Shown: in pieces, positions 21,135 through 63,421 of the stretch | Position numbering within the stretch: the first letter of the stretch is position 1 | How the letters are laid out: every line of letters begins with the position of its first letter | Assembly (NCBI GenBank): GCA_964016885.1 | Contig: OZ024743.1 | Location: forward strand, 45,818,001 to 45,882,000 | Source of the DNA: Eledone cirrhosa | Lineage: Eukaryota | Direction: 5' to 3' | Length of the DNA: 64,000 nt | Translations under genes and position numbers: made by a program | Notes under the pieces: model-generated | Seen by the model: only the letters and a program-made list of their open reading frames with translations | What the model was told of the DNA's origin: nothing | Databases searched by the model: none

Positions 21135-21189
21135 TGCTATATATATTTCAGTGATAGCCATTATGCAACAGCTATGACCTCATCAGGCA
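21135..21189 (-). ncRNA. Type I hammerhead ribozyme (minimal, PLE-type)
   Basis: UGC-CUGAUGA-GGUCAUAGCU...GGCUAUCACU-GAAA-UAUAUA-UA-GCA. Intact core, long helix II and palindromic helix III. AAUAAA lies downstream. Confidence 0.8.
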
Positions 21190-22269
21190 ATTGGAACTTG
21201 AACAGAAAAAACAGGAAAACATAATGTTGTAATAGATTTTACCTTGTTAATTCGTTGATATATTCATATCCAGAGTGTGGTGCTAGTCCTCTAAGGAACT
21301 GAAAGCATATGAAAGCATATATCAAGGAAATAATAATTTCGAATTTTTTTGATAAAGGTATGTATTCTCTATTATGTGAAGCTGCTTGCACGAGCCACAA
21401 ACACTACTTATCATGCATGTTAAAATCCGTAAACATTGGCTACTCCCGGTAATTAGGTGCTTAGGAATTACAAACAAAGCCTCGTGCAAGGGGGGTAATT
21501 CTGTGATCAGAGAAGTGATATCCATTTTCAAATAGATCCACATTACACCAGTCGGAGCAATATTTACTACTGAGGGTGTGAGAATCGTGGGATATTTATA
21601 CAAATGAAAATGTTTATATAAATATATGATATAGCTGGTAGGAGATGGAATAATTTTATAGGCGTAGGATGGAATATAAACATTTGAGGGCATTTATATG
21701 TGTAAGTATATGTAAGTAATGGAGAATAGGCGCCTTCATCAACATAGTCAATGGAAGACTAGTTCCTTGAAAATCCAGTTAATACTATGTATCAAAATAT
21801 ATAATTTCCGTTATATTTATATATCGAGTACTCATTATTTTTAATATGAAATCCCACGCAAGTAACTATATATGTGTTTTCGTGTGTACATATGCATATA
21901 CGAGTGTTTGCATGTGTTCATATGTATGTATATATGTCTGCGTGGGATTTTCTCGTGTCAAATAAGTATAGGAGAGCATATTAATATGTTATAAGGTGGT
22001 TTCACGTTGGAAGATGTCTGTTTGCAAAATTTTTTATATAAAAATATACGAAAATTAATTTGTTTAATATTATGTTATTCATTAAGTTGTGTTCTTTGCT
22101 AAAGTACTTATTGAAAAACATATATTTAGGAATTCTATTTGTTTGGAAAGTGATATGAGTTTCAGTGAGAATATCTCAGTGACCAGGTCACTAACAGTGC
22201 GATGAAAATGTTAGCACCATGAAATATGGTATAAGGTAAGGAAAGGAACTGATAGTCAGGTCGGACTAA

Positions 22270-22605
22270 GAAAACTGTTTCCATCGGTCTTTACATTGCT
22301 GATACTATCCACCTATTGCATAGTAAATATAAAGTAAACAAAACAGTCAGCTCGAGAGTAGCCCAGAGGAGACTGAAGTTAGCTGGACATGCTCTCCGAC
22401 ATCCAGAGTTGACACTGCTTCCAGTGCTCCTGTGGGAACCCCTGCATAGACACCCTTGAAGAGGAAGACCGAGGTTAACATATGTTGATGCCCTAAGGAC
22501 ATACACTGGTCTGTTGGAGACGCAGGACATGGCAGCGATAATTAGGGACAGAGACCGCTGGAGAGAACTCGTCCATAGATGTCGGGAATTTTACCCGCCC
22601 TAGAC
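22270..22605 (+). mobile_element. RTE-clade LINE 3' fragment
   Basis: Translates RRLKLAGHALRHPE..LLWEP...RGRPRLTYVDAL...RDRDRWRELV, the typical RTE C-terminus. Confidence 0.7.
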
Positions 22606-22884
22606 ATGTGTATTTTGAATGGCTAAAATGTTTCTTCTGCGATGTCATTGTTTGTATTTATATAATAAATCAATACAGATTCCTGAGTTCTTTGTTTCTT
22701 GTGTATGATTGACATATTCATTAGCAGGGAACGATACAACACAAGACATTGACGGCATCAAGCTAATGTCATCACGTTTGCTAATTCTAAACTTCGTGTG
22801 GATAAATTCTTCTAGGATGTAATATTATGAGAAATAGTCGGGAAATTTGAAATCCAATCCAATAGTAGATTTATCAACTAATGT

Positions 22885-23000
22885 GGCAAATTGACAGAAT
22901 CGTTAGAAAGTCGAGTGAATGATTTACGCTATTCACTCTGAGTTTACATCCCGCTGAAGTCTGTCTTTCATCCTTTCGAAGTCGAAAATAAGATAAGAGA
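22885..23000 (+). mobile_element. Degenerate family-1 SINE
   Basis: ctgagttt...ctttcatcctttcgaagtcgaaaa. Further degenerate copies lie at ~23720-23850 and ~25020-25150. Confidence 0.6.
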
Positions 23001-60568: not shown

Positions 60569-62429
60569 CAGTGGCGTAGCTAGGATAAATGGCGCCCAGA
60601 GCAAGCATCAAAATTGCCCCCCACCCCCAACATTATTTGAATGCTGATTCGCAAATTGGGACAAACACATTCATCGCCGTATTGTATGATGAATTGGAGA
60701 AGTGCCTCCGGCTTTAAAATTGGGTCAGCTGTCCTAGTAACCAGCAAAGATCGGCAGTCCAAGATTTCCTCATACAATTGCTCTCCGTCGATGTCGGAGT
60801 TGTATAGTTCCGCACCTTTGTTTAAGAACAAGGTTTGAAGACGATTGTGTGAACTTTGCATTGCTCTCTCTATCTCTTTTCTGGCAGCCACCTTGACGTC
60901 CTCAGTAATTTCGGTATTGGTTTGTCGTCTTCCTCGCCTCCTCGGAAAATCGACATTCCATTTCTGGCAGAGGTCGAAGCCCATTTCAAGAGACTCGTGG
61001 ATTAAGGATGTTCCTTCTTCTTTAAAATAAAGTTGAAGGGCTCCTATATCAGCTGCAGCATCGTGAAAATTCATTCTTGGATCTTGAAGTCTCTTTTGAA
61101 CCCCGTCAATTCGTGAGAGAATCGTGTTCCAGAATCTAATTAAGTTCAGGAATTCATAACTCAGTATCCGATTATGGAGATTACTGGCATCACTTCTACT
61201 CTCGCATGTCTCTGTTTCATCATCACTAATTTCTTTCGAGAACTTGAACAATCAGCGTCAAATAATTCGCCACCGGTCTGATTGCGGTACATCTAGCACT
61301 CCACCGCGTGTCGGAAGGATATTTAACAACCACTGGAGCAACTTCTTTAAGGGCTTACCATCGTCGTGTTGAACGAGAGAAAAGGTTGTATAACGAGTCA
61401 ATGTAACTGAAAAAGTTAATCATAGCAGAATCGTTTTTGGCTGCATGAAGACCAGCCAGTGTAAGTGAATGGTTATCGCAATTAACGAAGTGAATCAAAT
61501 TATTCTTCTCTCTCATTCTCTGCTGAACCCCACTACTGCGCTGCCCAACCATTATGGCAGCATTGTCGTAGCACTGCGATCGACAGTTCTGTAGTGGTAG
61601 GTCATCTTTTTCTAGCTCTTTCACGGTTGTTTCAACAAGGCTTGCAGCATCTTTTTTGATTACTTGAATGAATCCAAGAAAAGATTACCTCACAACGACA
61701 GTCTTCATATTGAAATCAACATCGACATATCGCACAACTTTCGACAGTTGTTCTCGGCGCGCCTGGTCAGGGGTCGAATCAATCAGCAGACCATAGTATC
61801 TTGCTTTTTGGATACGATTTAGTAAATTCTGACGAACTGTATTATAGAAGAAAACATTGAACAATCTAAACTGGAGTCAAATTGAATTCCTAATAGAAGC
61901 TATCCGATCCTATCTGGCCATTTGGATTATGATACCTTTTCTATACGTCTTATGTACCAGTTGTAAAAGACAAACTACTCTGTTTTGTAAACCAGCTTCA
62001 TAATTATAATTATCTTGTATTGGTCATTGCAATACATTGCTAAAAATAGCGCCTGCGTGTCCACCAGTTGCACGTCCAAAACTACGTTCGTGTGTGTGAG
62101 GGGGGGGCGGTTTTGTGAGGTCAAGTGAGGTATCCGCTGTTTTGCAATGTATAGCTAAAAATAGCGCCCGCATAATTGCAACCCACCCTGCTGTCAGTGT
62201 GGAGGGGGGGGGGCGTTTTTCTGAAGTCAAATCAGACATCTGCTCTGTCTAATGCACTAGTCATGGCGTGGAAGTCGGCTATCAAGAAATCACATGCTTC
62301 CTTTTGGCTCATATTTTTAAAAATGATAAAAACGACATGGATGTAAATCGATCTAGGTCGAAATTGCGCCCCCCTAAATGTGGCGCCCGTGGCATGTGCC
62401 CTGCTTGCCACACCCTAGCTACGCCACTG
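60569..62429 (-). mobile_element. hAT DNA transposon (ZMYM1/Tip100-like), internally deleted
   Basis: 16-bp TIRs cagtggcgtagctagg / cctagctacgccactg with an 8-bp TSD (catatata) on both sides. Transposase remnants: IDSTPD...EQLS.VVRYVD, QCYDNAA, NCDNHSL, SDTRWS. Confidence 0.93.
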
Positions 62430-62825
62430 CATATATATATATATATATATATATATATATATATATATATATAACGGCGATGAATTAGTTTTGCGAGGTT
62501 TTTTATATGAAATCGTGTGTCGAAACAAATATGAGTGTGTTCTGTTATTAATTCTGGCAATATTACACAAATATGACCCTCCCCAAGTATAACAATATAT
62601 ATATATATAAAGAATTAATATCTAGTAACATATATATACATACAGATGCATATCAATGCTAGCAAATATATAGGTTTTGTCTTAGTAACTTTGTGGTTCA
62701 ATGCATGGGGTTGCAGAACAATAATATGAGACGTAAAATAAGAAAATTATAAAATTAACTTACTTACTATTTTTTAATAAGTTTCCAGTGTCCACGCTTT
62801 GCCTGGATACTTAGATGAGAATAGA

Positions 62826-62905
62826 CCTCCCTGACGACGGAATGCTTCTCTGTATCTTCTTCGGAAAATATATTTATTCCATTCCAGAAACTAATTAGTT
62901 GGAAG
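62826..62905 (+). ncRNA. Type I hammerhead ribozyme with a large loop II
   Basis: UCC-CUGACGA-cGGAAUG...CAUUCCa-GAAA-CUAAUUAG-UU-GGA. Confidence 0.7.
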
Positions 62906-63341
62906 TGATATTTTAGTAAGTAAGTTAATTTTATAATTTTCTTATTTTACGTCTCATATTATTGTTCTGCAACCCCATGCATTGAACCACAAAGTTACTA
63001 AGACAAAACCTATATATTTGCTAGCATTGATATGCATCTGTATGTATATATATGTTACTAGATATTAATTCTTTATAATTATCTCCAAATTATTTGTCGA
63101 GCAATATTGGCCATGACTGCTGCTATGGCAGCAGGCCGCTGTCTTATTAGCAAACCACTTTCCACTGATTGACCTCGATGTCACGTGATTGATTCTTTTT
63201 GAATTTGCCACCGACGCAGAGGCAGTGATGTTCTCAATGGCTAGGAATTCAGTCCACGCTTTGCTATTTCCTATCCACTGAATTATTTTTAAATAAGTTT
63301 CCAGTGTCCACGCTTTGTCTGGATACTTAGATGAGAATAGA

Positions 63342-63421
63342 CCTCCCTAACGACGGAATGCTTCTCTGTATCTTCTTCGGAAAATATATTTATTCCATTC
63401 CAGATACTAATTAGTTGGAAG
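63342..63421 (+). ncRNA. Mutated second copy of the 62826 hammerhead
   Basis: Same helices, but the core reads CUAACGA and GAUA. Confidence 0.55.

Follow-up and report, generated by a model that had tools for sequence, protein, structure and literature searches.

Minimal hammerhead ribozymes were described in the terminal repeats of metazoan Penelope-like elements (PLEs) by Cervera and De la Pena (2014; PMC4209133), and two further systems are closely related, the Hydra-clade PLEs (Craig et al. 2021, PMC8557442) and the animal retrozymes without long terminal repeats (non-LTR retrozymes; PMC7229834; bioRxiv 2026.07.22.740005). Here we analyse a 64,000-nucleotide stretch of the octopod Eledone cirrhosa (assembly GCA_964016885.1, contig OZ024743.1, positions 45,818,001 to 45,882,000; hereafter the window), in which an earlier note, made from the letters alone, had proposed at least twelve minimal type I hammerheads from about seven unrelated families. 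Our preferred reading, to which we assign a probability of about 0.8, is that the 3' repeats of PLEs and of their derivatives without an open reading frame (ORF) hold minimal hammerheads 40-180 nt inside the end, in at least ~200,000 copies in this genome, that these would cut as dimers only and with the help of protein, and that the copies in the window are passive by-products.

The window motifs, which form seven families (A to G), share with the 2014 hammerheads, as characterised in that account, the type I topology, the short helix I, the long helix II and the tiny palindromic helix III, as well as a bulge before G10.1-C11.1 (here in family E), the U3-A8 variant (here in family C, there in Schistosoma Cercyon) and a mostly solo occurrence, with inverted pairs 100-700 bp apart and many families per genome. 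They differ in number, with 204,277 pattern matches here against ~2,000 + 1,300 (Schistosoma), 4,000 (coelacanth) and 9,000 (Xenopus), the descriptors behind these counts being different. Likenesses to the Hydra-clade PLEs, as portrayed in PMC8557442, comprise the DKT, RxRW, CxCX5C linker and C-terminal CxH motifs, the (TA)n target and a sense hammerhead near the 3' end, and helix III of Hydra-1_Obim from Octopus bimaculoides (ACCA-A-UGGU) resembles that of family F (ACCA-C-UGGU; PMC8557442). In contrast to the few Hydra families described there outside cnidarians, the three found here give ~40,000 matches and include open full-length frames. With the non-LTR retrozymes, as presented in the two sources above, the system shares ORF-less tandem units of 300-570 bp that co-occur with PLEs and hold one type I hammerhead each (families D and G, and arrays of 310- and 466-bp units); the hammerheads are minimal here and canonical, of the loop-loop kind, there (PMC7229834), and the units found here, unlike those, show every mark of PLE insertion, namely a partial tandem, an inverted copy, a tail and (TA)n.

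Hammerheads in the window and across the genome

Type I order (helix I - CUGANGA-like - helix II - GAAA-like - short helix III - NUH - helix I) was read at 12/12 sites, at the coordinates and on the strands given by the earlier note, and the sites fall into the seven families that it had counted: A (21135 and 51650), B (30252 and 32552), C (40355), D (41780 and 42040), E (57403), F (59822 and 60368) and G (62826 and 63342). The full core is present in nine of the twelve and changed in three, and four of the twelve show decay. As read from the sequence, the motifs are minimal type I hammerheads of the kind carried in PLE 3' ends, which is what the note had taken them for; its palindromic helices III (UGCGCA, UAUAUA, CCGG and CUAAUUAG) are present, and its predicted cut sites (32612, 59875, 60421 and 62900) are borne out as positions. 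The motifs are as follows.

21134..21190, minus strand: hammerhead A1, core intact, helix III UAUAUA, predicted cut after 21138
30250..30320, minus strand: hammerhead B1, intact, helix III UGCGCA, predicted cut after 30258
32550..32620, plus strand: hammerhead B2, intact, predicted cut after 32612; (TA)n begins 43 nt on
32737..32790, minus strand: hammerhead of an eighth family (13th motif, not listed in the earlier note), core 1 and helix II kept, helix III and cut site deleted
40355..40392, plus strand: hammerhead C, compensated U3-A8 core, helix III CCGG, predicted cut after 40388
41780..41820, minus strand: hammerhead D1, intact core, helix II disrupted and without a fold
42039..42080, plus strand: hammerhead D2, GAAG (that is, A15.1 to G)
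51650..51704, minus strand: hammerhead A2, decayed (U3/G8 mispair, U16.1 to A)
57403..57447, minus strand: hammerhead E, intact core, nucleotide bulged before G10.1-C11.1, helix III GGAC, predicted cut after 57408
59819..59885, plus strand: hammerhead F1, intact, helix III CCACUGG, predicted cut after 59875
60363..60433, plus strand: hammerhead F2, intact, predicted cut after 60421; same strand as F1, 546 nt apart
62826..62906, plus strand: hammerhead G1, intact core, C10.1-A11.1 mismatch, helix II extended, palindromic helix III CUAAUUAG, predicted cut after 62900
63342..63422, plus strand: hammerhead G2, decayed (G5 to A, A14 to U)

B1 and B2 are inverted copies with arms identical at 218/219 nt, and most window sites lie 40-180 nt upstream of the next microsatellite. 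A C-A mismatch at the base of helix II, as in G1, is also reported for another PLE (PMC8557442, supplement).

Our own structure descriptor (core CUGANGA or UUGANAA, GAAA and NUH, with helices I and II scored) passes seven sites in its strict setting and 8/12 in its medium setting (21135, 30252, 32552, 40355, 57403, 59822, 60368 and 62826); sites 41780, 42040, 51650 and 63342 fail. The eight stand far above shuffled sequence, a comparison that the earlier note had itself named, since 100 block-wise dinucleotide shuffles of the window gave a mean of 0.05 motifs and a maximum of one. Another check named there, against Rfam (Hammerhead_1/HH9/HH10), gave no match in the window at gathering score, so that Rfam misses the system. 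No hammerhead appears among the best 150 of the 251 Rfam matches ranked by E-value, which are dominated by microsatellite matches to microRNA models, and in three local scans HH9 matched weakly at family D alone (24.1 and 16.2 bits, where 52 is required), with no hammerhead match at families E and F.

To place these numbers in the genome (2,995,841,428 bases), we obtained 99 of 100 requested 10-kb stretches, taken in even steps and totalling 0.99 Mb. They hold 84 motifs in the strict and 106 in the medium setting, against 0 and 0-2 in five shuffles, which extrapolates to 254,000 (bootstrap 95% 163,000-369,000) and 321,000 (218,000-442,000) motifs, respectively; leaving out one array-rich region, the densities are 71 and 94 per Mb. 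A local hotspot or ribozyme island was considered and rejected, the window's 7-8 motifs in 64 kb being typical of the sample. That is, the system is diverse, as the note had it, and its density in the window, which the note had singled out, equals the genome average: the probability that 64 kb holds as many motifs as the window is 0.29-0.39, and 12 motifs were counted in 80 kb of flanking sequence.

Nine exact patterns, which fix the core and usually helix III and leave helices I and II free, gave the 204,277 matches across the whole genome, against 36 for reversed controls; haplotype duplicates, if present in the assembly, are counted within these totals. By family, the matches number 12,090 for A, 19,772 for B, 12,414 for C, 332 for D, 19,904 for E, 8,542 for F (a few percent of them double or internal) and 10,847 for G, and two groups that have no copy in the window contribute 64,470 and 55,906. 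This load is higher than any count that we found in print, a comparison that is not like for like because descriptors differ. Published figures include >6,000 motifs in a coral, ~5,000 in a mussel and, as the highest that we met, 126,247 canonical motifs in the axolotl, whose PLE minimal hammerheads are uncounted in that source (PMC7229834), and 235 Rfam hammerheads in the giant squid (PMC6962438). A 2026 repeat annotation of Octopus vulgaris lists 31 recently active Penelope-like families, the words 'ribozyme' and 'hammerhead' being absent from its accessible text (PMC13282606), and a genome-wide hammerhead count for an octopod was not found in the openly accessible literature, subscription papers lying outside this coverage.

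The elements that carry the hammerheads

A Pfam scan of 32 frames of the window found RVT_1 and GIY-YIG fragments adjoining three families, with scores mostly near or just under the cut-off, and 20 loci (L numbers), picked from spaced hammerhead pairs, were examined besides. The elements, with RT for reverse transcriptase and UTR for untranslated region, are as follows.

~21076-21310: Hydra-clade PLE 3' end of family A (A1), ~235 bp, holding hammerhead A1
around hammerhead A2: family A 3' end (A2), 214 bp, 87% identical to the terminal repeats of L177
30212..32658, mixed strands: family B Hydra-clade PLE insertion, (TA)n flanks on both sides
30212-30585, minus strand: inverted 3' end of family B
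30586-30933, minus strand: inverted RT fragment of family B
~30930-31535, plus strand: end of the family B ORF with GIY-YIG, then 3' UTR
36941..40520, plus strand: family C PLE, frameshifted RT + GIY-YIG ORF at 36941-38995, long 3' UTR, then (TA)n
41640..42217: family D inverted pair of ORF-less units between (TA)n tracts
57681..59435, minus strand: family E PLE ORF remnant, 585 amino acids open, RT + GIY-YIG, CX4CxxC linker
59403..60568, plus strand: Hydra-clade 3' ends of family F, arranged as a partial tandem that breaks up the 5' region of element E
62601..63473: insertion of family G without an ORF, with inverted fragment 62601-62769 and partial unit 62768-62955
62956-63471: family G full unit, 516 bp, then (TA)n
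L183:2653-4977 and L184:2571-4994, both minus strand: full-length Hydra-clade PLEs

The two full-length elements belong to family B and have open frames of 775 and 808 amino acids between two hammerhead-bearing repeats, which are 98% and 92% alike. Pfam gave no match on the full 808-residue Hydra-clade protein (P0001); the YxDD and GIY-YIG motifs are present in it and in P0002. Hydra-type RT and endonuclease are likewise bracketed by family A in L177 and by family F in L173, same-strand hammerheads flanking the ORF on both sides in L173, L177 and L183-L185. Families C and E run directly on from RT + GIY-YIG, both in the window and at other loci, and only their downstream repeat was seen adjoining an ORF (the remnant of E stops ~240 nt upstream of its hammerhead). 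Between the chosen pairs of C (L186) and D (L182) and several pairs of A and F there is no ORF.

The Hydra marks read SDKTN, RLRW, CNCPVKNKC and CLH in family B, ADKTN, RMRWK and CNCRNPESC in A, and SDKTK and CSCRKPDEC in F; that is, DKT and CxCX5C are common to all three and RxRW to A and B, and the A and F frames are 33-52% identical to the B frame in aligned pieces. Judged by motifs rather than an RT tree, A, B and F belong to the Hydra clade of PLEs, and the seven families are therefore not all unrelated, contrary to what the earlier note had supposed. Families C and E, with a CX2-5CxxC linker (CX4CxxC and Neptune-like in the C ORF) and a CCHH endonuclease finger read by eye, appear to be Neptune/Nematis-type PLEs; both marks are shared by the two clades, so that a split between them would take a tree. 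Among named proteins, the E frame is closest to one from Octopus vulgaris (67%), and the B frame has a single named relative, from Argonauta hians (37%), both in keeping with a probable octopod lineage.

Families D and G are retrozyme-like tandem units without an ORF. The G unit measures 516-570 bp, with a longest ORF of 27 amino acids in the 516-bp unit and at most three full units in L188, and occurs as partial tandems with an inverted fragment, (TA)n ends and, in some copies, a ~120-bp tail. The tandem unit of D is ~316 bp long (L211), with a longest ORF of 43 amino acids, and is 67% alike to a family of 310-bp tandem arrays. Contigs from four sequencing runs (three organisms) cover 26-30/30 bins of the G stretch, and one of them repeats after 517 nt, as in the G tandem; contigs lack RNA ends, so they have no bearing on expression. 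The suggestion that much of the system is detached from any ORF holds, by design, for D and G only and fails for the remaining families: 4/12 sites directly adjoin the remains of a PLE ORF inside the window, and four more are 5'-truncated ends of families having ORFs elsewhere.

Tandem arrays of near-identical 466-bp and 310-311-bp units, each unit with an intact minimal hammerhead, were seen at contig C1 5738326-5751401 and beyond, L209, L206:762-2784 and L093, the 310-bp arrays often paired and facing away from each other; if circular retrozyme RNA is made, these arrays would be its likeliest sources. A second U3-A8 hammerhead family lies at L066:1198(-) and 1518(+), with flanks related to D and a 10-nt helix III region. 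Inside the window, an inverted pair of family D 3' ends at 35173-35611 is truncated before the hammerhead, and Hydra-type GIY-YIG remnants stand at 34000-34413(-) and 53527-53742(+), no hammerhead being detected beside either.

Other repeats of the window include four copies, 78-87% alike and three of them head to tail, of a non-LTR retrotransposon with endonuclease, RT, zf-RVT and an upstream zinc-knuckle frame (1-1914, 4186-7481, 10184-12126 on the minus and 46771-50388 on the plus strand); a Tc1/mariner transposon (55000-56587) whose ends are inverted over 200 bp and whose DDE transposase frame is broken; and a cluster of ~125-230-bp repeats resembling short interspersed elements (SINEs) in tandem and inverted copies (15060-20083 and 25929-26057), within which a 745-bp palindrome lies at 19339-20083. 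We take the SINE-like repeat to resemble octopus SINEs. A 223-residue frame at 60580-61251(-) looks by eye like a hAT transposase remnant, with no Pfam match, and a 600-bp repeat, 93.5% identical between its two copies, stands between microsatellites at 13298-13900 and 44212-44828.

Selection, cleavage and competing readings

Covariation was examined in family G only, with 18 distinct copies. In its helix II, 95.8% of cells are paired, with 37 double-sided changes, a level reached by 0/500 shuffles (slid controls are 36-43% paired), and RNAalifold recovers the same helix; pairs with change (125/500 shuffles) and pair types (297/500) were not above shuffles. In family C, where U3-A8 replaces C3-G8, the core among the first 100 matches listed reads UUGAAAA in 99 and UUGAGAA in one. 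Among copies found by homology in unselected DNA (the sample plus flanks), the core is intact in 42/52, and mismatch to the query amounts to 3.1% at core positions vs 7.8% in the flanks. The helix II covariation and the lower mismatch of core than flank fit, and suggest, selection acting on source elements, with inserted copies drifting and decaying.

The mechanism that we favor would run as follows. Full-length elements are built as hammerhead, ORF and hammerhead in direct repeats; a transcript over two repeats would pair the palindromic helix III strands and be cut to unit length, possibly being circularised; and, going by published PLE biochemistry, the RT/GIY-YIG protein would start copying this RNA close to the 3' end, into (TA)n DNA. 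Insertions are mostly 5'-truncated in their sequence pattern, often with an inverted partial copy added, so that what remains of each is a hammerhead or two with hardly any ORF or none; the fold is kept between source subfamilies and the inserted copies decay. The inverted pairs, partial tandems and (TA)n targets agree with the PLE signature as given in PMC8557442. Families D and G likely ride non-autonomously on PLE machinery, and the window copies are likely passive by-products of transposition.

Cleavage is predicted, and likely, in dimers only, probably with help from the element's protein, and the note's view of helix III as suited to dimers agrees with predicted energies: at 12/12 sites helix III has 0 to -0.5 kcal/mol in the monomer and -1.7 to -10.6 kcal/mol in the self-dimer, which is predicted to be weak for A and E. 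A PLE hammerhead of the anole is reported to cut only with protein present (PMC11167929). F1 and F2 are the only pair of intact same-strand copies in the window and thus its sole candidate for a dimer in cis; the copies in the pairs B1/B2 and D1/D2 point away from one another, so that read-through RNA would bury the motif in duplex.

Several points weigh against this mechanism. The isolated helix III energies ignore junction stacking, shared ancestry of the G copies inflates their covariation counts, and these copies were chosen by a pattern that fixes the core. An autonomous partner of D or G was not found among the 100 matches listed for each or in the fetched loci, a search that was not exhaustive. 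In the published work, as reported, Naiad PLEs spread without canonical hammerheads (PMC8557442), eight of nine Xenopus dimer elements showed no cleavage in vitro and one cut (bioRxiv 2026.07.22.740005), minimal hammerheads cut weakly even as dimers (PMC4209133), and the cut of the anole PLE was dispensable for insertion in vitro, with no RNA-seq ends at its site (PMC11167929). The low activity and the anole results would suit an alternative in which the fold does not act by cleavage in transposition, being a structure for protein binding or RT positioning, or a hitch-hiker, with cleavage marginal. It would also suit the sampled motifs, 83/106 of which have no same-strand partner within 5 kb (54 are solo, 29 have only an opposite-strand partner and 23 a same-strand partner at <=5 kb). 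However, the catalytic positions stay the same in many hammerheads whose helix sequences are unrelated, and family C retains its 3-8 pair through the double change to U3-A8, which matches the prediction of selection on catalysis, and we consider this alternative unlikely.

A broader host-level proposal is that this is the heaviest hammerhead load reported for an animal (one per 10-15 kb, >15 families, Hydra-clade PLEs still amplifying) and that it acts on the host transcriptome: same-family dimers in cis or trans would cut read-through RNA and release circular retrozyme RNAs, and long duplexes of the frequent inverted pairs would silence the ribozyme and feed the heavy adenosine-to-inosine (A-to-I) editing of octopods. 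Exceptional hyper-editing and potential for double-stranded RNA are reported for octopus (PMC5625713); that inverted PLE pairs may be linked to A-to-I hyper-editing is our own idea, and we regard the proposal as a whole as doubtful. Co-option by the host of part of the dispersed copies, for trimming read-through or intronic transcripts or for making abundant circular RNAs from tandem units, would be in keeping with the huge copy number, the near-identical 310- and 466-bp arrays, the abundant circular RNA from tandem retrozymes reported in coral, mussel and axolotl (PMC7229834) and the predicted stability of a circular G unit (-118 vs -95 +/- 6 kcal/mol in shuffles). It is nevertheless very unlikely, given that the core is broken in 10/52 unselected copies, that 4/12 window copies have decayed, that no host gene was identified in the 64-kb window and that pairing with inverted partners would lock the motif up in long duplexes. 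Finally, two further views, that the motifs arose as random matches in DNA rich in AT and microsatellites or that the window is a special island of ribozymes, for which the low-complexity context and the lack of a gathering-level Rfam match might speak, are refuted by the shuffles (0-2 vs 84-106 per 0.99 Mb), the reversed patterns (36 vs 204,277) and the average density of the window and its flanks, and have a negligible probability.

Scale and use of the system

In conclusion, this kind of motif has been known since 2014, so that the window by itself is no discovery; the scale may be one. The genome would hold ~200,000-300,000 motifs in 3 Gb (~70-110 per Mb), compared with 126,247 in the axolotl, whose genome has 28 Gb, and with thousands in further animals, a load that is invisible to Rfam, and the claim to a record depends on literature counts made with different descriptors. 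With its young full-length Hydra elements that have both repeats, its near-identical arrays, its covarying ORF-less riders and its natural dead copies as controls, this genome supplies material missing so far for deciding whether cleavage by PLE hammerheads takes place in vivo and is of consequence.

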